DNA from: a virus
Reading direction: 5' to 3' (one strand)
Length of the DNA stretch: 64,000 nt
Virus record (IMG/VR): IMGVR_UViG_3300047560_000724
Span: 16,580 to 80,579 of that record
Below the pieces are notes generated by a model, which saw only the letters and a program-made list of their open reading frames with translations, was not told the origin of the DNA and searched no databases. The position numbers and the translations under genes were made by a program. This document shows positions 10,948 to 53,236 of the stretch, piece after piece. How positions within the stretch are numbered: position 1 is the first letter of the stretch; each line of letters begins with the position of its first letter.

Positions 10948-11508
10948 TTACTCAGCTAATCCTGCTCTAGCACTAATTACATTCCAATTGATGATTTTCC
11001 ATTGGTTTTCTAAGTACTTCTTCTTGTCTGCTTGATAGTCTAATGCCCAAGCGTGTTCCCACCAATCAATAAGCAATACAATATCAAACTTAATATCGTG
11101 GTTCTTTATAGTCTTTATTTTTCCATCTTTTGCCAAGTATACCCATCCGCTACCTTGAATTGCCATCGCTTCTTTAGCAAATGCTTCTTTAAACTTGTCA
11201 AAAGTCTTAAAATGTTTAGTAATAAGTTCACTTGCTGAACCGCTAGGAGCATTAGAATTTGTTGGCTTTTGAAATTGTGTAAAGTACAGATCGTGTAAGA
11301 ATGCACCTGCTTCATTAAAGTCTGCATCGCCTTCTCCGTTATTAAACCGGTCAACATAGGCTTTATATAACTTACCATAATGGTAATCTAATGACTGTTT
11401 ACTTAAACTTTTACCTAACTCATTACGGTCGTACGGTAACGCTGTCTGTGTTAAAGTTTTAGGTGCTTTGCCTTCATTTAATGAAACATATCTGATAAAG
11501 TTATACAT
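10948..11508 (-). CDS. Fe/Mn superoxide dismutase-like protein
   Basis: LDYHYGK, GSGWVYL, DWWEHAW..DY. Confidence 0.85.
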   Translation of the reverse strand: MYNFIRYVSLNEGKAPKTLTQTALPYDRNELGKSLSKQSLDYHYGKLYKAYVDRFNNGEGDADFNEAGAFLHDLYFTQFQKPTNSNAPSGSASELITKHFKTFDKFKEAFAKEAMAIQGSGWVYLAKDGKIKTIKNHDIKFDIVLLIDWWEHAWALDYQADKKKYLENQWKIINWNVISARAGLAE

Positions 11509-16258: not shown

Positions 16259-17461
16259 TTATGCTACTTTGAGTAGAATGGTGTCTTCGTTGAGACGACC
16301 ATTCATTTTAGTGTCTGTAGCGTTGATATCTTCTAGGAACTTACGCAACTGTACCTTACCCGCCGCTTTAAACTCTTTGAGCTTTTCTTCTGGCTTGCGG
16401 ATAGTTTTACAGATACTCTTGAACTCGTCGAATCCTGTAAGACTTGTGCCTTTAACCCCTAAATCCGCAAACTCAGATGCAACATACTTGCCTAGCTTAC
16501 GAGTTTTAGTGTTATAGATCCAAAGCTCTTTTGCACCAATGATATCTGTAGGGCTAACTGATACCAGCTTCAACGGTTCGTCACTCTTCTTAAATTTAAG
16601 TTTAGCAACAACCTTCTCTGCTGGTACTGTCTTTTTAGCACGAGGCTTGCGGTTAACCTTAGCTTCTTGTGCAAGCATTGTACAAGCAGAGTCAACTTCT
16701 TGATAGAATGCAATTAGAGCTTTAATCTGCTTCTTGCTACGGTGTGAGTAACCTTCACGCAACTGTTCGTCAGCTTTGCCGCTAGCAAGCTCAAGCAATT
16801 CATTCAAGTCTTTGCTATAAAAGTCTTTGATAATACGAGCATGAGCGGCTTTGGCTTCTACAGCCTTGAGCAAGTTAAGAACCTTAAATGCTTTTGGATC
16901 AAAGTTCTCAGCATCTGTTTGGAAACTTTCAATCGCATTTTCGATTTCCTCAGTCATACGATAAGCGGCTTCACGAACACGCTCTTGAATTGACGGAGTA
17001 TAAACTGCAGGCTTGTCTGCTTCTTTAGCCTTTTCTGCTTCTTCGTCGATGTCATCTTTACCTTGAGAAATCACATCGACAATTTGTTTACGCAACCATT
17101 CAGCAGTATCACGACCTTCGTTGAAGTCTGCTCGCTGAGGAGTCATTCCGCGAAGCAAACAAGATGCAATAGCACCCATTGTTGATCCGCAACGGTTGTC
17201 TTTAGTTTTCTTAAATGCGGCAATGTCAGCTTTAGTGCAACCAACTTTTTCCATCCACTTAATTACAGCAGGCTTGAAACTCTTGCTGTCTGCTTCAAGG
17301 CGATAGTAGTTCATTGCCACTCGAAAGTGTTTATGGAACTGATCAGCAGGCCAAGTTTCGCAACCATCCCAAGTTGGGCTATAGTCCTTAGCCGCCTTAG
17401 TGCGGTGGGCAATAACTTGCTTTTTGGTTACACGAGTTTTGGTTGCAGATTTTGTAGCCAT
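16259..17461 (-). CDS. Hypothetical phage protein
   Basis: 400-aa ORF with AGGAG SD and its own sigma70 promoter. Confidence 0.8.
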   Translation of the reverse strand: MATKSATKTRVTKKQVIAHRTKAAKDYSPTWDGCETWPADQFHKHFRVAMNYYRLEADSKSFKPAVIKWMEKVGCTKADIAAFKKTKDNRCGSTMGAIASCLLRGMTPQRADFNEGRDTAEWLRKQIVDVISQGKDDIDEEAEKAKEADKPAVYTPSIQERVREAAYRMTEEIENAIESFQTDAENFDPKAFKVLNLLKAVEAKAAHARIIKDFYSKDLNELLELASGKADEQLREGYSHRSKKQIKALIAFYQEVDSACTMLAQEAKVNRKPRAKKTVPAEKVVAKLKFKKSDEPLKLVSVSPTDIIGAKELWIYNTKTRKLGKYVASEFADLGVKGTSLTGFDEFKSICKTIRKPEEKLKEFKAAGKVQLRKFLEDINATDTKMNGRLNEDTILLKVA

Positions 17462-37036: not shown

Positions 37037-37060
37037 AAATAGGCCCCGAAGGGCCTATTT
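37037..37060 (-). terminator. Intrinsic terminator
   Basis: AAATAGGCCC TTCG GGGCCTATTT followed by Ts. Confidence 0.8.
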
Positions 37061-37523
37061 ACTGTGCGTACCAAATTTGGCTAAAGCCTTCATCTAAGGT
37101 CGGTTCTTCCCATCCGTCAATCATTTGATCTACAACATATTTTGGAATATGCTTACCAGGACGACCTGACAACCTTACATCTAACTCATCGCGATTCGGT
37201 GTACGGAATACAATAGCAATGTGTTCGTAATCCGGCAAGGTATTAAACTTTCGGGTACGACTCGCGATAGTGGTACTAGTCTGATCCCAGATTAAATCCA
37301 AATTGTTTGCTTGACAAATTAATGCTTGATTAACCATTAACTTAACTGCAATTGGCATATAATCTTTAAATACTTCGGAATAAGTTTTACCTTGTTCCTT
37401 AGCATAGGCTTCTACAAACGAATCTGTACAGACTACAGGCATATCCTTAGCCCAATCTTGATTAGAAATCCAGGTGCTTTTTCCAGCACCCGGAACTCCT
37501 ACTAGTTGATAACACTTTGGCAT
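37059..37523 (-). CDS. P-loop kinase (polynucleotide kinase-like)
   Basis: GVPGAGKST, WDQT...R, R..RPGK.IP. Confidence 0.8.
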   Translation of the reverse strand: MPKCYQLVGVPGAGKSTWISNQDWAKDMPVVCTDSFVEAYAKEQGKTYSEVFKDYMPIAVKLMVNQALICQANNLDLIWDQTSTTIASRTRKFNTLPDYEHIAIVFRTPNRDELDVRLSGRPGKHIPKYVVDQMIDGWEEPTLDEGFSQIWYAQ

Positions 37524-37531
37524 ACTACTCC

Positions 37532-38137
37532 TTACATCGTTGGGCCGTTGCCCGATCTGAAACCAACAACACCGCCTTCTTCGGCGATACGCTTTAACAC
37601 ATCTTCAAATAAGATAGGTGCAAAGTCCGGTGTTTGTTCCACACAAACGCAATGGTAGCGTGGATCAATTTCATCACCATATAACACTTCGCCGGTCTTG
37701 GCATCAACACCACGAGCTTTCATAACACGATTTGCGTGTAAGTGTCCGTGAATGTTAACACCAAAACGACCTAAGCTATCTGCGTGTACAGGAATATGGC
37801 TTAAGATCATTCCGTTCATAACATGGTATGCTCGTAATTCTCTAAAGTACTGCCTGTACTCGTCATCTCTAAAGATGTCGTGGTTACCACGAATTAAAAC
37901 CTTATCACCGTTCAAGCGATGTAACACTTTTAAGGCCTTGCGGTTAATAACAACATCGCCTAAATGGTAAACCTTGTCAGTAGGCTTGACTCTTTCGTTC
38001 CAAGCCCTGACCATAGCTTCGTCCATTTCGTCCGGGTCATCCCACGGCCTTAACTTTGTAAACCCGTCGTTCCGGGTGAAGCGACATACACCTGTGTGAC
38101 CAAAGTGCGTATCGCTAACTAAAAATACACTAGGCAT
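37532..38137 (-). CDS. Calcineurin-like metallophosphoesterase
   Basis: SDTHFGH, LGD, GNHD, HGHLH. Confidence 0.9.
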   Translation of the reverse strand: MPSVFLVSDTHFGHTGVCRFTRNDGFTKLRPWDDPDEMDEAMVRAWNERVKPTDKVYHLGDVVINRKALKVLHRLNGDKVLIRGNHDIFRDDEYRQYFRELRAYHVMNGMILSHIPVHADSLGRFGVNIHGHLHANRVMKARGVDAKTGEVLYGDEIDPRYHCVCVEQTPDFAPILFEDVLKRIAEEGGVVGFRSGNGPTM

Positions 38138-38634
38138 TATATGTCTCCTTCATAGTTCTTTGGCACAATCAAACCACTGTCTAATTCAATGCCGTTAATC
38201 GTATGGGGCTCGTTTTCATCGTAAGTCCAACCGAGCACCTTCATCATTTTATGCTTGACCATCAAGTTAGGGCTACGAAAAACTTCAGTATCACGGAAGC
38301 CCATCATAACTCCAACCTCGCAGACTGCACCCGAACGGCACACACCTGCAACACAATGCACAACAACATTCATTCGTTGTTCCATTGCATGTTCTAGCAA
38401 TCGAACAAGTCTTTCGGCTTGCTCGTCTGTAACCTTAAAGTCGTCGCCCCACTTGTCGTCTTGTTCCAAATCCAAGAACTCAAACTGATGAGTTTCACGG
38501 AACTGATGCCTAGGAGTAGGGAACTCCATAGCAGGGTCAACTATTTGAATGAGCATACTGTTAATGCCCGCATCAATGTGATGGCCTTTTGGAATGTCAG
38601 CAAACGAGACATTTTGAATCCACGGGGTTAACAT
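38137..38634 (-). CDS. Cys-dependent (dual-specificity/tyrosine-type) phosphatase
   Basis: VHCVAGVCRS (HCxxGxxRS). Confidence 0.85.
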   Translation of the reverse strand: MLTPWIQNVSFADIPKGHHIDAGINSMLIQIVDPAMEFPTPRHQFRETHQFEFLDLEQDDKWGDDFKVTDEQAERLVRLLEHAMEQRMNVVVHCVAGVCRSGAVCEVGVMMGFRDTEVFRSPNLMVKHKMMKVLGWTYDENEPHTINGIELDSGLIVPKNYEGDI

Positions 38635-38743: not shown

Positions 38744-40153
38744 TTACAGGTCGTAGCGTGGGACCATTACAGTCTTAAGCATAATACCTTCTGGAGTGAA
38801 CTGATCAAGATCAGCACTCAAAAGAGCTGTCATAATGCTTGGGCTGAACCCTGACACCAAAGCAGCTCCTGTCTTGTCTGCCTTAACAGGTACATTGTCT
38901 GAACTGTTTAGGTTCCAGAAAACAATCTGTGGCATTGCATAGCCAGCGGCTTCGAACTTGCGTTCGATCATTTCCATTGCGCTATCGTCGTAACGGGCGC
39001 ATTGGTTGAATTGCATGTCTGACAAGATTAGTAGCATAGCTGGCATATCGCTAGCAGGAACATTTCCCTTAACTGCTGTGCTTAGGATCTTATCCATAGC
39101 GGCATGCAGGTTAGTACTCATTTCCCAGTTGCTACGAGACATTTGGTCAACCTTTTCAACAATGTTACCCTTTAGAGTAACAAGTTGTGGCTTGCTTGAG
39201 AAAGTCAAGAATGTGTCCTTGAACGCACCCTTGTTCTTGTCTGCAAGGTACAAGCCTAGGCTTACGGCTACATCAAGACAACGAACACTAGTGTCACGAC
39301 CTGCTGGGCAAGTCATAGAACCAGATACATCAACTAGAGGTAGGATACTTGCGTTGCCTACATAGTTTGGCAGAGCATCCCATTGTGCGATCACATGGTT
39401 AGTCTCTGTCTTGTCCAAAGTCTTGTAGCCGTGTGCGATGCCCTTTAGGACATCATGTGGGAAGATTGCGTTGGCGTTAACCTTAACAGTCTTATCCCCT
39501 GCCACCAACTTGGCCACATACTCTGCAAACGCAGGTGTGTGACGGTTGAATGCCTTCTTGTATTGGCGAGCCGCTACAGAAGGAACATGGCTAAAGTTGA
39601 TGTTATCCCAATCTCCTGCACACATTTGGGTTTCAACAACCTTTGTAAGTGCCACAAGGCTCTTACGGTATTGCTTTGGAGTCATGCCAAAGAAGGCACG
39701 GATCTCAGCGGCAATCTGACCCTTACGAGGAGTCCACTTTGCAGCCAAACCGTTCTTAGCACGAAGGGCATCGCCCAACATGGTATAAGCGGCTGACTTC
39801 AGAACTGGGTCTGAGAAGACAAAGATGTCATCCCAACGACCAACTTCTGGAACCTTGCGAAGCAAAGCCAAAGCGGCGTCTGGGTCACGCTTTTCTAGAT
39901 GAACTAGAATGTCGCGGAACAGTTGACGCTCACCTGCACCACCACGGACATCTCGTGCCCATTGTGCAATGCGAAGTGCAACATCAGAGTTTTCCACATA
40001 GGCTGCAGTGAAGTCAGCCTTAATATCCTTACCACGGCTTGCGCCGATCTTGTAGAACAAGTCAACACACGCCTTAGCTGTGGACTTACGAGCCTTCATG
40101 CCATTGGCAGTACGGGCTTCTTGATTTGCGATTGCGTTTACAAATGCGTTCAT
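38744..40153 (-). CDS. TROVE/Ro60-like protein with vWA domain (DUF2828 type)
   Basis: Helical N-terminus RDVRGGAGER...GRWDD...AAKW.PR; MIDAS DVSGSM...STN...LSDMQF. Confidence 0.75.
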   Translation of the reverse strand: MNAFVNAIANQEARTANGMKARKSTAKACVDLFYKIGASRGKDIKADFTAAYVENSDVALRIAQWARDVRGGAGERQLFRDILVHLEKRDPDAALALLRKVPEVGRWDDIFVFSDPVLKSAAYTMLGDALRAKNGLAAKWTPRKGQIAAEIRAFFGMTPKQYRKSLVALTKVVETQMCAGDWDNINFSHVPSVAARQYKKAFNRHTPAFAEYVAKLVAGDKTVKVNANAIFPHDVLKGIAHGYKTLDKTETNHVIAQWDALPNYVGNASILPLVDVSGSMTCPAGRDTSVRCLDVAVSLGLYLADKNKGAFKDTFLTFSSKPQLVTLKGNIVEKVDQMSRSNWEMSTNLHAAMDKILSTAVKGNVPASDMPAMLLILSDMQFNQCARYDDSAMEMIERKFEAAGYAMPQIVFWNLNSSDNVPVKADKTGAALVSGFSPSIMTALLSADLDQFTPEGIMLKTVMVPRYDL

Positions 40154-40163
40154 TTTATTACCT

Positions 40164-40220
40164 CACAGAATGTATTGTTTTTCGATATGCTTGAAAATTG
40201 AAAGTTGCTGTTAACATTCT
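40164..40220 (-). ncRNA. Stem-ACAGCAA module copy 1 (5' UTR of Ro60-like gene)
   Basis: AGAATGT-TA-ACAGCAA...ACATTCT-GTG abutting the GAGG SD. Confidence 0.7.
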
Positions 40221-40228
40221 AAAATTCT

Positions 40229-40461
40229 AACAGGATGATTGTGCCAATTTGTTTATTATTCTGGTCTGACCAATTACGGCACTCAGACCCTAACAACAAT
40301 TCATGTTGTCTATCTTGTATTGTGTCTGTACAAGCATCATATTACGGATTCTCCGTACCTATCTATTCCTTCGGCGTCTATTTCTAGAAAGCATTTCTGC
40401 TTGTCCTCCGACCGCCTTCTATAGCTGTAGTCGTAGTAGTTTAAATTGCTGTAGTCATCCT
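40229..40461 (-). ncRNA. Stem-ACAGCAA module copy 2 (233 nt, multi-hairpin insert)
   Basis: AGGATGA-CT-ACAGCAA...TCATCCT-GTT. Confidence 0.7.
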
Positions 40462-40467
40462 ATGACT

Positions 40468-40636
40468 AACAGGATCGTTGTTGACTGCTTTTATTAGACT
40501 CAGGCCATCACTCTGAGCTCGTCCAGGGCATTTCAATAGTTACCTTCAACATACTCGGGCGAACCTCTGTACTCCAATAACTACCATGCACTATCCAGAC
40601 CTTTCATAGTAATATGAATGTTGCTGTGCCGATCCT
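40468..40636 (-). ncRNA. Stem-ACAGCAA module copy 3 (169 nt)
   Basis: AGGATCG-GC-ACAGCAA...CGATCCT-GTT. Confidence 0.7.
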
Positions 40637-41229: not shown

Positions 41230-41319
41230 TGGTCCCCCGTTGAGGAATCGAACCTCATCCTGGACCTTATCTAGATTAAGGTGTTATAAGCACCCCTGCT
41301 CTCCATGAGCTAACGGGGG
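41230..41319 (-). tRNA. Atypical tRNA-Ile(TAT) with long variable region
   Basis: CCCCCGT/ACGGGGG acceptor, loop CTTATAA, about 20-nt variable region. Confidence 0.7.
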
Positions 41320-41992: not shown

Positions 41993-42068
41993 TGGTGCCC
42001 CTTGTCCGACTCGAACAGACCACCTACTGATTACAAATCAGTTGCTCTACCAGATGAGCTAAAGGGGC
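41993..42068 (-). tRNA. tRNA-Thr(TGT), canonical
   Basis: Loop TTTGTAA, CCA. Confidence 0.93.
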
Positions 42069-46558: not shown

Positions 46559-46566
46559 ATAGAAAA

Positions 46567-46684
46567 AACAGGATACATTTTATAGCGCACTACCAATTGT
46601 GCTAACTTGGCATGAAGCCAAATGTTGGACTCGAACCAACAACCTCTCGCTTAGAAGGCGAAAATTGTTTGCTGTTAGTATCCT
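46567..46684 (-). ncRNA. Stem-ACAGCAA module copy 4 carrying circularly permuted tRNA-Arg(TCT)
   Basis: Order anticodon arm, T arm, loop-closed 7-bp acceptor, D arm inside AGGATAC/GTATCCT. Confidence 0.85.
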
Positions 46685-46689
46685 AAACT

Positions 46690-46873: not shown

Positions 46874-46947
46874 TGGTTCCTCCAACAAGAATCGAACTTG
46901 TAATGACCGGTTATCAGCCGATTGTTATACCATTTAACTATAGAGGA
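46874..46947 (-). tRNA. tRNA-Ile(GAT)
   Basis: Loop CTGATAA. Confidence 0.88.
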
Positions 46948-46953
46948 ATAATT

Positions 46954-47028
46954 TGGTGGTGATGAGTAGAGTCGAACTACCACCAGACTCCGTATGAAGG
47001 AGGCGCACTACCATTATGCTACATCACC
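46954..47028 (-). tRNA. tRNA(CAT), Met or Ile2
   Basis: Loop TTCATAC. Confidence 0.8.
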
Positions 47029-47121
47029 ATATAGAAACACACTCGTGCCTTTTTCGTCAGAGGAAGGTGGCCTTTCCCAGTACCCGGACTATGTCCGGTG
47101 TCGAATATGTTTTCATATGGT
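47026..47121 (-). repeat. Family-B stem element copy 2
   Basis: Same 18-mer and closing stem. Confidence 0.65.
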
Positions 47122-47123
47122 AA

Positions 47124-47211
47124 TACCATATAGAAACACACTGGCTTGCAAGACTTCTACTAACCTTTCGATGGATGTCGCAGTTAGTATTCAATGTGTT
47201 TTTATATGGTA
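47124..47211 (-). repeat. Family-B stem element copy 3
   Basis: Same 18-mer and closing stem. Confidence 0.65.
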
Positions 47212-47280
47212 GGGGCACAGAGAATCGAACTCTGATTAATAGGTTAAAAGCCTACTACTTTGCCGTTAAGTTATACCCCC
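47207..47280 (-). tRNA. tRNA-Lys(TTT)
   Basis: Loop CTTTTAA. Confidence 0.9.
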
Positions 47281-47283
47281 GTA

Positions 47284-47358
47284 TGGTCCACGCTCTGAGA
47301 ATCGAACTCAGTTCCTCCGGGTAAGAGCCGGTTACTTCGCCACTAAAGTTTAGCGTGG
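47284..47358 (-). tRNA. tRNA-Lys(CTT)
   Basis: Loop CTCTTAC. Confidence 0.85.
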
Positions 47359-47419
47359 TTGGTCGTAATTAAATTGATTTAATGTGCCAACCAGGACCAA
47401 TACGGGGTCAAGGTCGACA

Positions 47420-47440
47420 CTAGCGTTTACCGCGTTTCAT
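47420..47440 (-). other. Minigene MKRGKR* followed by a hairpin
   Basis: AAGGAG SD, ATG AAA CGC GGT AAA CGC TAG; stem 47384-47420. Confidence 0.5.
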
Positions 47441-47470
47441 GTCGTTCTCCTTTTGAACATTGTTGAAATA

Positions 47471-47535
47471 AACAGGATGTATTTTTACGGTTTTGATTAA
47501 AAGTCAAATGTATAAATTTTTGCTGTTAACATCCT
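47471..47535 (-). ncRNA. Stem-ACAGCAA module copy 5 carrying isolated Lys(UUU) anticodon stem-loop
   Basis: AGGATGT/ACATCCT enclosing TTTGA CTTTTAA TCAAA. Confidence 0.8.
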
Positions 47536-47540
47536 TAACT

Positions 47541-47614
47541 TGGTGCTCCATCGAGGAATCGAACCCCAATTGCCGGACTACAAAACCGGTGTCTTACCAT
47601 TAAACGAATGGAGC
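47541..47614 (-). tRNA. tRNA-Thr(TGT), variant copy
   Basis: U31xU39, loop TTTGTAG. Confidence 0.8.
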
Positions 47615-47621
47615 AAATTTA

Positions 47622-47737
47622 AACAGGATAGAATTTAACATAGTGCTACCGTTACACCAAACCTTTCGGCTGCGGAGTCGAACCGCTCCCTTACTTTTCA
47701 AGAGTAGTGAGTTAATTATTTTTGCTGTTACTATCCT
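47622..47737 (-). ncRNA. Stem-ACAGCAA module copy 6 carrying permuted tRNA mimic with Ser(UGA) loop
   Basis: TACT CTTGAAA AGTA, GCGG TTCGACT CCGC, AGCC GAAA GGTT, D-arm-like GTGTAACGGTAGCAC. Confidence 0.8.
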
Positions 47738-47741
47738 TAAC

Positions 47742-47815
47742 TGGTACCTCGTTACAGAATCGAACTGTCATCAACGGTATGTAACACCGTGGTTCTGCCA
47801 TTAAACTACCGAGGC
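47742..47815 (-). tRNA. tRNA-Val(TAC), variant copy
   Basis: Loop GTTACAT (G32, U38). Confidence 0.8.
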
Positions 47816-47821
47816 ATAAAT

Positions 47822-47897
47822 TGGTCTCCCTACCAGGATTCGAACCTGGACCACACGGCCCCAAACCGTGTACGCAACCTGATAACGCTTTAGAGAG
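47822..47897 (-). tRNA. tRNA-Pro(TGG), variant copy
   Basis: Loop TTTGGGG, A8. Confidence 0.8.
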
Positions 47898-48053
47898 ATA
47901 AAGGTTGGGCGCCACACTATCCTCCTGGGAGGACTCGCATGATTGTCTCGAATAGTCAAGTCTAATACCACTCCTAACCGTTCTTGCGCTGTCACATAGC
48001 TGAGTCACTATGCTAGGTTGGGTGGGACTCTAAACTACCGTCTATCCCGAAAT

Positions 48054-48128
48054 TGGTGGAGGCCGAGGGAGTTGAACCCTTCTAGTCAGCAACCTTGCAA
48101 GGGTTACCCGTAGCCCGCTACTGCCCCC
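48054..48128 (-). tRNA. tRNA-Ala(TGC)-like, aberrant D arm
   Basis: G3:U70, 7-bp anticodon stem, loop CTTGCAA, D region GTAGCGGGCTAC. Confidence 0.7.
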
Positions 48129-48138
48129 AAATTCTTTT

Positions 48139-48215
48139 TGGCACCCGAGGAAGGATTCGAACCTCCGACTCCAATGTTCGTAGCATTGTACTCTAGTCCA
48201 CTGAGTTACACGGGT
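48139..48215 (-). tRNA. tRNA-Arg(ACG)
   Basis: Loop CTACGAA. Confidence 0.9.
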
Positions 48216-48300
48216 ATAAATTAGTGTTAGTTTCTATACCACCCATTGAAACTAACAAACATTGAGAAGCCATGCATCAAAACAAGACTTCTATTTGCCC

Positions 48301-48577: not shown

Positions 48578-48583
48578 ATAATA

Positions 48584-48642
48584 AACAGGATACATTCTTT
48601 TTCACCATTTGAAAGTTGATTAAGATTTGCTGTTAGTATCCT
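48584..48642 (-). ncRNA. Stem-ACAGCAA module copy 7 carrying Glu(UUC)-like anticodon loop
   Basis: AGGATAC/GTATCCT enclosing ATCA-A-CTTTCAA-A-TGGT. Confidence 0.75.
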
Positions 48643-48647
48643 TAAAC

Positions 48648-49977: not shown

Positions 49978-50463
49978 TTAACTTTCTACTACACCGACTA
50001 GGTGCAAGCGGGCCTGCTCGGAACAATTCATGAAAGTATGTAGTTTGCGTGTGTCAGTCCAGTAAACTGAGTCAACACTCAAGTGTTGTGGTGCGGAATC
50101 CTTAAACACAAAGTAACAGTTAGGGTTGGTCACTAACGGAATGTGAACCCTTGGTGTTTCATCCCTGTGCATACTGTAACAAGCATAAGGGCCAACCCAC
50201 ATGAGTCTTGTTCTTAGCAGCCGGTACTTAGTGATTAGCTCTTCAAAGACTGTGCCCTTAAAGAAAGGATTTAGCTCAGTGTAACTAGTTTCGTTGCCCT
50301 TACTTCTGCCGACCGCACTCGTCCACGCATCTTCACCTAGTTTAAACTGAAGGCCACATTGTTTACCCTTGTGGCCATAGTCAGTCCATTGTATATCTAA
50401 TTCAAGATCAGTGTACTTTGTTAAGATAGCAGAAGAACTTATACTATCTAATACTTTGATCAT
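49978..50463 (-). CDS. Asp/Asn beta-hydroxylase-like 2OG-Fe(II) oxygenase
   Basis: HRD..PRVHIPL.TN...H.F.N....RLHLV. Confidence 0.8.
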   Translation of the reverse strand: MIKVLDSISSSAILTKYTDLELDIQWTDYGHKGKQCGLQFKLGEDAWTSAVGRSKGNETSYTELNPFFKGTVFEELITKYRLLRTRLMWVGPYACYSMHRDETPRVHIPLVTNPNCYFVFKDSAPQHLSVDSVYWTDTRKLHTFMNCSEQARLHLVGVVES

Positions 50464-51584
50464 GAACGACCAATTCTTGACGGAATTGCTTTAACTTGTG
50501 CCCCAGTATTTGTTTGGTAGGCAATTAATGCGTTTTCATGCGGAGTGGTTAGGTAACTTACTAGTTCCGGAATTGTCAGTACCACGGCTTGACTGTCAGA
50601 ACTTCCTTGTGCAGCCTTTTGGATCATTTTATAGTAAATGCCCTTGCGTGTTTTAACATCATCGTAAATTTCTTCAAAACCAGTATACTTTCTAGCTTGG
50701 ATAATCTCAGGCCAGTTCTTAACAGTCATCATAGGTTTGTAGAACTGTTGAAACAAACTCCACCAGCGGTACGGGTGCTTGATGTTGTTACAGAACACTT
50801 CATAAATTTGCTCTTGTACTGCATAAAAGCGTTGACAAACATCGTCTGTAAGATATGACACAGTTAGTTCTGGAGTATACAAGAAATACTTACTAGTACC
50901 TTCGTAGCCTTGTTCCATCATGTGTCGCATAATAGGTTGTGGTGTTTGGATCCATACAGGTACTGTTGCTCCGTTAGCCATCCGTGGTAAACGCTTAGAA
51001 ACATAATCTGGGCTAATTGGTTGCATCATTGGGTCACCCCCGCCCATGATGTAGCAAAAATCCTGACCAACAAAGTCCATTGTAGCACATTGTACTAAGG
51101 TAGCTAAGTTTGTAAACCCGTATTTTCCTGCGTAACGCTGTGCAAGCCCGCGATAATATGCATCTAAATTAATTGTAAATTGAATGCTTTCGATTCCGTA
51201 TCTGCGGCAAAACTCATAAGCTGTTTTAATATCATGCTCGTTGATCAGTTCGTTAGCAACATCAAACATATGAACAATAACAACCTTAAATGGGACTTTT
51301 GCTTCCATGAGGCTCAAACAAACCATTTGGCTATCACTACCACCGCTGAGGCCAACAATGATCGGTTTTGTTGCTTTATTAGCGATTAGACTAGCGGCAT
51401 GAATACATTCTTCACGGAATGATTTAACTTCGCGAGTAGTATGTCCTAATTGCAATTTAAATGTTCTCGAAGGATCTGGGTCATTGTACCATTCGTCTTG
51501 GTTAGATACATGGTCCTCGTATGGATCCACTCCCCATCCCCATTTAAAATGGTTGCCTTCTGTATAGTCGAATTTTAATTCCAT
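50460..51584 (-). CDS. PP-loop ATP pyrophosphatase-like, group 2
   Basis: LSGGSDS; paralog of 51604 and 55815. Confidence 0.7.
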   Translation of the reverse strand: MELKFDYTEGNHFKWGWGVDPYEDHVSNQDEWYNDPDPSRTFKLQLGHTTREVKSFREECIHAASLIANKATKPIIVGLSGGSDSQMVCLSLMEAKVPFKVVIVHMFDVANELINEHDIKTAYEFCRRYGIESIQFTINLDAYYRGLAQRYAGKYGFTNLATLVQCATMDFVGQDFCYIMGGGDPMMQPISPDYVSKRLPRMANGATVPVWIQTPQPIMRHMMEQGYEGTSKYFLYTPELTVSYLTDDVCQRFYAVQEQIYEVFCNNIKHPYRWWSLFQQFYKPMMTVKNWPEIIQARKYTGFEEIYDDVKTRKGIYYKMIQKAAQGSSDSQAVVLTIPELVSYLTTPHENALIAYQTNTGAQVKAIPSRIGRS

Positions 51585-51603
51585 GATGTGCGTTCTTTAA
51601 AAG

Positions 51604-52728
51604 TTATCTATTTATTAGGTGCTGTTCGTCGTCAAGACGATCTTTGAATTCTTGTGTTAATTGTATAGGCGCAGGATCTGCAAGTGGGATTGATTCTAGC
51701 GCATGAGTGTGCGGAGTAGTAATGTATTCGATTAGATCGGACATTAAAATTGGTATGACACAGCCAGAACCTTTACCATCAGCTGCGTCTCTTAACAGAT
51801 ATTGATAGTATCTCTGTAAGTCTGGTTCCTTATCAATTTCTTCAAATCCGGTTAACTTTCTATTTTGAATAATTTCGGGCCAATGCTTGTTAGTAAGAAG
51901 AGGTTTAAACATCATATGGAATAATGTCCAAAAGTTCTTCTTTTGCCAAACCATGAATGATTCGTACATTGTAGTCTGTGACGCATAAAAATATTTGCAA
52001 ATTGGATCTGTTAAGAATGACGCAATTAATTCAGGGGTATACAAATAAAATTTACTAGTACCTTCGTACCCCATTTCCATCATGTGCCGCATCACTGGCT
52101 GAGGAGTTTGCCACCACACTGGTCCATAGAAGTTTCCAGCAACAGGAGTCATGTTAGACATATCTTGTCCAGGAGTAAGTACTGGATGATATAAAGTCAT
52201 CATTGGATCGCCACCTGCCATTATATAACAATGCTTAGATCCGATGTAGTCCATGACAGCACATTGTACAATAGTTTGTTGTCCAGTGAAACCATAGTAA
52301 CTAGCATACTCTCGACCAATAGTTCTGTAATAGTAATCTAGATTAAGATCAAAGTTATGATAGCTAATGTTATATGTTTCACAGAACTTATAAGCCGTAG
52401 CAATGTCGTGTTGATTGATAATATCATTGTTATTGTTCCTAAGCCTAGCAATAACAACACTGAATGGAATGCCTGCTTCTCTAAATGACAAGCAGGCCAT
52501 TTGACTATCACTACCTCCGCTGAGTCCCACGACAATAGGCTTTGTTGCCTTTTGTCCTATAAGTCTAGCTGCATGAATACACTCTTCTCGAAATGATTCA
52601 ACCGGTCTAGTACAGTAACCTAAGTGTAGTCTAAACTTGCCGCTTCTGTCAGCGTCATTGTACCAACCGTCATCTCCAAACCCCCATTTAAAATGGTTGT
52701 TCTCTGTGTAATCAAATTTCAAATCCAT
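51604..52728 (-). CDS. PP-loop ATP pyrophosphatase-like, group 2
   Basis: LSGGSDS. Confidence 0.7.
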   Translation of the reverse strand: MDLKFDYTENNHFKWGFGDDGWYNDADRSGKFRLHLGYCTRPVESFREECIHAARLIGQKATKPIVVGLSGGSDSQMACLSFREAGIPFSVVIARLRNNNNDIINQHDIATAYKFCETYNISYHNFDLNLDYYYRTIGREYASYYGFTGQQTIVQCAVMDYIGSKHCYIMAGGDPMMTLYHPVLTPGQDMSNMTPVAGNFYGPVWWQTPQPVMRHMMEMGYEGTSKFYLYTPELIASFLTDPICKYFYASQTTMYESFMVWQKKNFWTLFHMMFKPLLTNKHWPEIIQNRKLTGFEEIDKEPDLQRYYQYLLRDAADGKGSGCVIPILMSDLIEYITTPHTHALESIPLADPAPIQLTQEFKDRLDDEQHLINR

Positions 52729-53236
52729 GCGTACTCTTCCACCATTCTTGATTTCTAAATCCAACAGAACGCAATGGTCTCTTGAAGTCTAAGTTAAACG
52801 CTAAGATAAGATAAGAACTGAAAGTATTGCAATTTTGTGTTAGCAATTTAAATTCTGTAACAGGATAGTTAACGCAAGCATTAACAATGTCATCGATATC
52901 AATACCTGGATTAATTTGTTTTCCGATAATGATTGGCATTCCACCAAACCATTTTTGTGTAGGATCTCTGTCTGTAACAAACGGCCCTTTCTCAAGCCAA
53001 CCCTGAACATTGGAGTGTAGAATGTTTCCATTCTGTATATCTACTGTTTCAGCATCTGTGTTTTCAATCACAAGCCATTTGTTGAGTTTGTTAGACCAAA
53101 CAGTCATCCAGGAATGTGTACCGCCTAAATATCCCTTCATGGCCCATGCTCTCGCATGGATCCAGTAAATGTAGTTTTTGTCTAAGCCTAAGTCAACTGA
53201 CGAGATATCACATAATCGCCAATCTTTAAAAAACAT
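52712..53236 (-). CDS. Permuted papain-like (PPPDE/DUF3750-like) protein
   Basis: GTHSW...NCNTFS with His before Cys. Confidence 0.6.
   Translation of the reverse strand: MFFKDWRLCDISSVDLGLDKNYIYWIHARAWAMKGYLGGTHSWMTVWSNKLNKWLVIENTDAETVDIQNGNILHSNVQGWLEKGPFVTDRDPTQKWFGGMPIIIGKQINPGIDIDDIVNACVNYPVTEFKLLTQNCNTFSSYLILAFNLDFKRPLRSVGFRNQEWWKSTHGFEI

Follow-up and report, generated by a model that had tools for sequence, protein, structure and literature searches.

Among described systems, the closest in kind to the element reported here are the Y RNAs of Ro60 and Rsr proteins, namely YrlA and YrlB (Rfam RF02553; Chen et al. 2014, PMC4201824) and Yrl1 and Yrl2 of Thermus phage phiLo (PMC12135203). 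The genes of Y RNAs lie within about 4 kb of the Ro60 orthologue and on the same strand (PMC4201824). In a 64,000-nucleotide (nt) stretch of viral DNA (positions 16,580 to 80,579 of IMG/VR record IMGVR_UViG_3300047560_000724; hereafter the window), an element of about 70 bases, M2, is situated between two tRNA genes (47469..47538; minus strand, as are all window features given below unless stated otherwise). It resembles the Y RNAs in several ways: it is a small RNA with a stem made from its own 5′ and 3′ ends and a conserved motif in an internal loop; it and modules like it share a strand with, and in many cases closely precede, the gene for a protein with the predicted ring and von Willebrand factor A (vWA) domain of the Ro60 fold; and its cargo mimics tRNA. 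We are highly confident that M2 is a real, conserved small non-coding RNA gene, in which a handle carries an anticodon-arm mimic. The fuller statement, that it forms part of a Y-RNA-like particle displaying this arm as bait and playing a role in a tRNA-nuclease contest, appears to us about evenly balanced between right and wrong.

M2 was delineated with a covariance model (R1), a regular expression and an alignment. Read along the minus strand from 47535 to 47474, it consists of the 5′ strand of the handle stem (AGGATGT, 47529..47535), the single-stranded handle motif TAACAGCAAA (47519..47528), a short A/U spacer, the anticodon-arm mimic TTTGA-CTTTTAA-TCAAA (47492..47508), the segment ACC-GTA-AAAAT and the 3′ strand of the handle stem (ACATCCT, 47474..47480), which pairs with the 5′ strand and is followed by a conserved G(TTT) at 47470-47473. 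Within the handle motif, which is common to all seven modules of the window, CAGCA is invariant (alignment columns 16-20). The arm corresponds to tRNA positions 27-43, with a stem of 5 base pairs (bp) and a 7-nt loop; on the plus strand, 47492-47508 reads TTTGATTAAAAGTCAAA, its reverse complement. The fold predicted by RNAfold (-9.7 kcal/mol) runs from the handle stem through an outer helix to the hairpin. Upstream of M2 lies a tRNA-Thr(UGU) gene (47541..47614; ARAGORN), whose CCA end stops 5 nt short of the handle stem and probably determines the 5′ end of M2. The initial annotation had described this cargo (47492-47508) on a module handle, an observation that is confirmed. Contigs from four freshwater metatranscriptome libraries cover M2, one of them beginning exactly at 47470; since transcription, ends and level are not provable from assembled contigs, these were treated as a sign of presence alone.

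M2 is not a tRNA in the usual sense, as it was not called as one by ARAGORN or Rfam, and of the cloverleaf arms just the anticodon arm is present. Its cargo is a single 17-nt hairpin with a short outer helix and without D or T arms, unlike that of YrlA, which mimics the D and T arms and has no anticodon arm. Rfam gave no family match at M2, either at the gathering threshold (that of RF02553 included) or up to E = 5, and megablast of 46900-48300 against sequenced phages returned no match.

Taken by themselves, neither the hairpin nor the fold energy of M2 is remarkable. The window holds 13 perfect 5-bp stems with a CTNNNAA loop, 10 within tRNA genes and 3 outside; because Markov shuffles give an expectation of about one such hairpin per window, the M2 hairpin alone is not beyond chance and its significance on its own was rejected. 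Its fold-energy z-score is just -1.4. The significance of M2 comes from the handle matches, from conservation and from the covariance-model score (90.2 bits, E = 2e-18), the last of which is circular in this case because M2 is a training sequence of R1. A 21-nt handle pattern matches the window four times against 0.05 expected. In total the window contains seven handle modules, three of which (M5, M6 and M7, of the same layout, at 40162-40636) are found directly upstream of the Ro60-like gene, 10-480 nt from it and behind a promoter-like site.

Homologues are numerous. A scan of viral contigs with 15 specified handle bases retrieved at least 119 loci, where about a hundred chance matches could be expected; nearly all of the pattern matches also had a complementary 3′ strand followed by TG, and among the matches listed 29 of the 119 loci, fetched by the RNA handle pattern alone, proved to contain the gene for the Ro60-like protein, a member of Pfam family DUF2828. 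Short modules of the M2 type form a clear class, with 38 distinct sequences in 54 instances. The 39 distinct homologues of M2 were found in uncultured viral contigs and in two phages, Aeromonas phage LAh_6 and Pseudomonas phage Milchi. LAh_6 has several modules in the roughly 900 nt before its DUF2828 gene, one of which overlaps the gene start, and another, about 220 nt before the gene at a place where no tRNA array is listed, bears the identical TTTGA-CTTTTAA-TCAAA arm. The same arm occurs in Milchi 8 nt before tRNA-Lys(UUU) and 3.4 kb from the gene for the Ro60-like protein, and in cyanophage BUCT-ZZ01 a module with a UUU loop (R1, 52 bits) stands just upstream of the DUF2828 gene. Vibrio phage KVP40 is a further carrier with handle modules at or close to this gene. 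Other short module classes carry the loops CT-GTA-AA, CT-GCA-AA, CT-TGA-AA and CT-GTT-AA.

Both parts of the module show compensatory change. In an alignment of 39 distinct sequences, pairs form in 91% of cells; covariation scores 0.327, compared with 0.115 in shuffled alignments (0 of 500 reach 0.327) and at most 0.08 in slid controls. Two inner pairs of the handle stem covary, with 98.9% of cells paired. In the arm, pairs 28-42, 29-41 and 30-40 show changes on both sides in 10, 14 and 16 sequences, respectively, and pair 31-39 is A-U in 38 of 39. Entropy is 0-0.17 bits at positions 31, 32, 33, 36, 37, 38 and 39, making the frame A31-C32-U33-N-N-U36-A37-A38-U39 invariant or nearly so, as against 1.06 and 1.44 bits at positions 34 and 35, which are among the most variable columns. 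The initial annotation had made its proposal depend in part on conservation of the loop in homologous modules; the loop is kept there, amid compensatory stem changes, and its loss was not seen. The loop letters themselves are UUU in 19 of the 38 distinct modules, UCU in 5, GCU in 5, UGU in 4 and CUU in 2, with single others, and variants are often found on one stem scaffold and at one syntenic site, such as the gap between tRNA-Ile(GAU) and tRNA-Trp, which holds UUU, GCU and UCU in three contig groups. Since positions 34-35 vary even at syntenic sites, it is the anticodon-loop frame that is kept and not Lys identity.

The Ro60-like protein (469 amino acids, 38744..40153) is recognized by Pfam as DUF2828 plus DUF7788 alone, which leaves it outside the TROVE-annotated family of the known Y-RNA partners, and it belongs to PHROG 850 ('RNA-binding protein'). 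A phmmer search against the PDB found nothing, so that fold prediction was needed to place the protein, and a profile search reached Ro60 with E of about 0.02 at best, over the stretch of the MIDAS, the adhesion site that depends on metal ions. AlphaFold2, supplied with an alignment of 113 diverse relatives, returned a model with a predicted local distance difference test (pLDDT) score of 92.9, and the top 13 Foldseek matches of this model in the PDB were all Ro60/TROVE structures (among them 2i91, 1yvp, 9l5y, 9kop and 2nvo; E = 2e-07 to 5e-06, template modelling scores 0.37-0.65), including the Ro60 of Thermus phage phiLo. The predicted fold shows the HEAT-repeat ring and the C-terminal vWA domain with a MIDAS that mark Ro60/TROVE proteins; residues D275, S277 and S279 of that site are invariant, as are T347 and D379, which are taken to complete it. 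This protein is probably the partner of the handle RNAs and would bind them. A literature search on DUF2828 yielded nothing but unrelated plant and animal papers, and no paper was found on this family in phages.

The cargo of M2 is of cellular type. The lysT arm of E. coli K-12, GTTGA-CTTTTAA-TCAAT, agrees with it at 15 of 17 bases, the sole difference being the 27-43 pair, as the closeness to the enterobacterial tRNA-Lys arm asserted in the initial annotation would lead one to expect. When one genome per bacterial species was scanned with the query GAGC-N plus the 17-mer, at least 121 matches were obtained, 118 of those listed lying in tRNA-Lys(UUU) genes whose arm is letter for letter that of M2; the bacteria concerned are Bacillota, Saprospiraceae and other Bacteroidota, and Alphaproteobacteria. 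Given at least 118 identical arms in bacterial tRNA-Lys(UUU) genes, the M2 arm is truly that of a cellular tRNA-Lys. The tRNA-Lys(UUU) of the phage itself (47207..47280, 190 nt downstream of M2; ARAGORN) has the arm GTAGG-CTTTTAA-CCTAT, and the dissimilarity already noted for this stem extends to all 52 tRNA-Lys(UUU) genes of phage contigs, where the arms are G+C-rich and the module type is found in 0 of 52; an origin of the module arm as a copy of the phage's own tRNA-Lys was rejected on this count. The proposal of a host-like arm holds as far as its cellular type is concerned, but the epithet 'enterobacterial' cannot be claimed, as the runs that hold the window phage are freshwater metagenomes. 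Simple host tracking is also argued against by the presence of the same arm in phages of Aeromonas and of Pseudomonas and in phages from freshwater.

There is a precedent for an RNA other than tRNA that copies an anticodon arm, namely the operator of the E. coli thrS mRNA, which thereby binds a protein that recognizes the anticodon loops of tRNAs; this operator is a cis-acting mRNA leader serving synthetase autoregulation and, unlike M2, no separate small RNA with a handle for a protein. As for M2, we propose that it would be transcribed within a tRNA precursor and released by the enzymes that trim the flanking tRNAs. Such release is suggested by the fixed short distances of modules from tRNAs, 41 of the 54 instances beginning 5-7 nt after the CCA end of the upstream tRNA and many of them ending 10-12 nt before the next one. 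The ends of the RNA would then pair into the 7-bp stem beside the conserved loop with ACAGCAA, thus forming the handle, which travels with the gene for the predicted Ro60-shaped protein and would be bound by it. The single cargo presented in this way is an arm that faithfully copies the anticodon arm of a cellular tRNA and in which evolution keeps the frame common to tRNAs for A-starting codons (A31, C32, U33, U36, A37, A38 and U39) and not positions 34-35. Most likely the arm would be a bait for a protein that reads the A31-U39 frame, and the particle would soak up or sense a tRNA-cutting defence nuclease of the host.

A contest over tRNA nucleases is pointed to by the genes adjoining that of the Ro60-like protein, together with the large, partly altered tRNA set of the phage. 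Directly downstream, at 37059..38634, are a DSP-type ('Swiss Army Knife') phosphatase (38137-38634), a calcineurin-like phosphoesterase (37532-38137) and an AAA_33 P-loop kinase (37059-37523), all assigned by Pfam and PHROG; these two phosphatases and the kinase are a predicted RNA end-healing set, like a split Pnk. Phosphatase and kinase neighbours recur beside the Ro60-like gene in the related contigs L057, L066, L106 and L091. Comparable known systems are the repair of PrrC-cut tRNA-Lys by T4 Pnk and Rnl1 and the Salmonella rsr-yrlBA-rtcBA RNA repair operon (PMC7790460); in the window, a kinase and phosphoesterase set for broken RNA ends adjoins the Ro60-like gene and its RNAs. Unlike in those systems, the healing enzymes of the window are separate small proteins, their link to the RNAs is one of gene order alone, and no ligase was found in the partial record.

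The T5 tRNAs that counter AriB are a phage RNA answer to a tRNA-cutting defence, as M2 may be, and the outcome turns on positions within the 3′ half of the anticodon arm. AriB cuts E. coli tRNA-Lys at U36-A-A-U-C/A41 (the slash marks the cut), its targets Lys(UUU), Thr(UGU) and Asn(GUU) have U36-A-A-U in common, and mutation of positions 39 and 41 keeps E. coli tRNA-Lys from being cut (PMC12409363). M2 reads U36-A-A-U-C-A, the same as the E. coli site. The window tRNA-Lys(UUU) reads U36-A-A-C-C-U and is therefore changed at positions 39 and 41, as in T5. The tRNA-Thr(UGU) adjoining M2 reads U-A-G-U (loop TTTGTAG, with G38) and for that reason is without the U-A-A-U motif common to the AriB targets; the phage tRNA-Asn keeps U-A-A-U-C-A. 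The agreement of M2 with the AriB site, together with the altered phage tRNA-Lys, can be called suggestive as a match of sequence. T5 uses full, working tRNAs that escape cleavage, whereas M2 would be a bait and not a replacement, because it is not a tRNA and keeps a cleavable-type sequence. On these grounds a role for M2 in a tRNA-nuclease conflict, as a plausible decoy or sensor, is put forward tentatively, at somewhat less than even confidence. Still more speculative, and in our estimate rather unlikely in its full extent, is the generalization that interchangeable anticodon-arm baits on a Ro60-like particle would neutralize or sense a range of immune nucleases (AriB-like, PrrC-like and others), with positions 34-35 recording an arms race and with bait cleavage or nuclease capture coupled to the end-healing enzymes.

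Several observations weigh against a nuclease bait on a Ro60-like particle, the case for whose binding, processing and function is built from sequence, fold prediction and gene order. The formation of N6-threonylcarbamoyladenosine at position 37 (t6A37) requires U36-A37-A38, and the invariant frame fits t6A37-making enzymes, aminoacyl-tRNA synthetases or ribonucleases equally well. An RNA ligase (Rnl1, Rnl2 or RtcB) was not found in the 80-kb record, a negative that says little, given a completeness of 21% for the record and an Rnl1 control search that came back empty everywhere. Judged by the 4-kb rule for Y RNAs, M2 is on the same strand as the Ro60-like gene but 7.3 kb away, as against 10-480 nt for M5-M7 and about 220 nt for the arm module of LAh_6, and the protein is of another Pfam family. 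The modules also differ from Y RNAs in lying inside a tRNA array, abutting tRNA ends, with many per genome, and their handle motif is ACAGCAA within TAACAGCAAA, in place of the GNCGAA(N)G near the 5′ end of known Y RNAs (PMC4201824). Finally, T5 tRNA-Lys that had been given the E. coli site was still not cleaved by AriB (PMC12409363); contacts outside the arm therefore matter, and the arm by itself may be too little for AriB to act on.

The alternative that fares best is a classical Y-RNA role, in which the arm would dock the Ro60-like ring to an RNA enzyme of host or phage, such as a PNPase-like exoribonuclease, a tRNA-modifying enzyme or a synthetase, so that tRNA and other structured RNAs could be checked for quality or turned over in the course of infection, without any connection to defence nucleases. 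Known Y RNAs do tether Ro60 to PNPase, phiLo Ro60 and its Y-like RNAs form such a complex (PMC12135203; PMC4201824), and YrlA is recognized by tRNA-modifying enzymes (PMC4201824); moreover, an invariant U36-A37-A38 with free positions 34-35 is just what a modification enzyme reading the frame would need. Yet this role leaves the exact copying of a cellular tRNA arm without a reason and the fast change of 34-35 at syntenic sites unexplained, and the adjoining kinase and phosphoesterase genes suggest broken RNA ends rather than decay. We consider it possible but rather doubtful.

Less probable again is the specific form of the bait hypothesis advanced in the initial annotation, namely that M2 is a host-like decoy for PrrC or PARIS AriB that is specific to tRNA-Lys(UUU) and is paired with the altered tRNA-Lys downstream. 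Besides the likeness of its U36-A-A-U-C-A to the E. coli AriB site and the C39 and U41 of the phage tRNA-Lys(UUU) (PMC12409363), it can draw on the fact that UUU is the commonest loop and on the modules of Milchi and contig L041, which lie about 10 nt upstream of tRNA-Lys(UUU). The retained site and the end-healing genes that follow the Ro60-like gene are in its favour, but the variability at 34-35, with GCU or UCU in syntenic copies, speaks against specificity for Lys. The TTTGA/TCAAA arm occurs in phages of Aeromonas, of Pseudomonas and from freshwater and thus tracks no one host, and the window phage is not known to infect enterobacteria; what a bare arm may lack for AriB counts here as well. 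The proposed pairing is true of the window, where the altered tRNA-Lys follows M2, but fails as a rule: a tRNA-Lys occurs within 400 nt downstream in just 15 of the 54 copies, some of which have non-Lys loops (UGU, UCU and AUU), and the idea that the module always precedes tRNA-Lys was rejected. The decoy idea is thus only partly supported, and because of this loose pairing we rate a Lys-specific decoy, improbable in its own right, as one possible case of the broader bait model.

It is more doubtful still that the modules mainly regulate the Ro60-like protein, through titration, storage or translational autoregulation by the module adjoining its ribosome-binding site, with the cargo hairpin being incidental. 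M5 (40162..40223; R1, 34 bits) stops about 11 nt short of the Ro60-like gene's start codon, beside its GAGG ribosome-binding site, and may mediate translational autoregulation by the Ro60-like protein; in Vibrio phage KVP40 (L247:8966-9005) a handle-like stem encloses the ribosome-binding site and ATG of the DUF2828 gene. However, an incidental cargo would not keep an invariant loop frame and compensatory stem changes across distant phages, and this makes the explanation very unlikely. A functionless decayed tRNA, processing spacer of the tRNA array or chance hairpin, which the shuffled hairpin count and the modest z-score would allow, is scarcely credible in view of the covarying conservation in 39 distinct sequences from distant phages and of modules that immediately precede DUF2828 genes with no tRNA array listed nearby.

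Cleavage of tRNA is now recognized as a common bacterial defence, to which phages are known to answer with replacement tRNAs and with repair enzymes. If the bait reading of M2 were true, a small RNA that shows just the part of tRNA attacked by the nuclease, on a Ro60-like protein encoded beside end-healing genes, would be a third kind of answer and a form of counter-defence by RNA that has so far gone undescribed. A function would then also be at hand for DUF2828, a protein family that more than 700 sequenced phages carry and that thousands of sequences represent in metagenomes. The modules take the tRNA mimicry seen in Y RNAs as far as the anticodon arm, which is absent from known YrlA RNAs. 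With Vibrio phage KVP40, Aeromonas phage LAh_6 and Pseudomonas phage Milchi as cultured carriers, the idea is directly testable.

The remaining modules of the window vary in their cargo. M1 (46565..46687; R1 match) and M3 (47620..47740; handle pattern and R1) carry tRNA-like cargo, and M1 has a weak Rfam match to YrlA that is limited to its tRNA-like part (28 bits against the 69 needed). M4 (48582..48645; handle pattern and R1) is short and has TGGT in its hairpin loop. Two modules read from the sequence have long cargo, M6 (40468..40636, behind the promoter-like TACTATAAT) with GGATCG ... CGATCC and M7 (40229..40461) with GGATGA ... TCATCC. In Cronobacter phage S13 (L248:10896-11138) two oversized 'tRNA' annotations of 121 and 113 nt directly follow the DUF2828 gene and may be misannotated handle or tRNA-mimic RNAs; they are followed by a handle module with tRNA-like cargo at 11155-11287.

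ARAGORN finds 37 tRNA genes at 40.7-48.7 kb of the window, M2 not being among them. The variant loop of the tRNA-Thr(UGU) next to M2 also occurs in 15 related contigs, and a second copy of tRNA-Thr(UGU) is present at 41993-42068. The tRNA-Ile(UAU) at 41230-41319 is unusually long (90-92 nt in the window phage and many related contigs) and may carry an insertion or a long extra arm. The first tRNA downstream of M2, at a distance of 116 nt, is tRNA-Lys(CUU) (47284..47358; ARAGORN). The spacer between the two (47359-47468, about 115 nt, and similar in length in the relatives L057, L021 and L077) contains, within a hairpin, a Shine-Dalgarno-like site with a six-codon frame (MKRGKR). Metatranscriptome contigs extend over 47355-47431, and the spacer may represent a further small RNA or a leader. 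Two adjoining genes at 50460-52764, immediately upstream of the tRNA array, have weak PP-loop ATPase matches (to NAD_synthase and to the tRNA_Me_trans/MnmA HUP domain, with E near 2e-05) and may encode tRNA-modifying enzymes. Finally, ARAGORN detects permuted transfer-messenger RNA genes with tag peptides in related phage contigs (L077:9763-10206, L092:8548-8982, L036:6931-7338 and L043:307-783).
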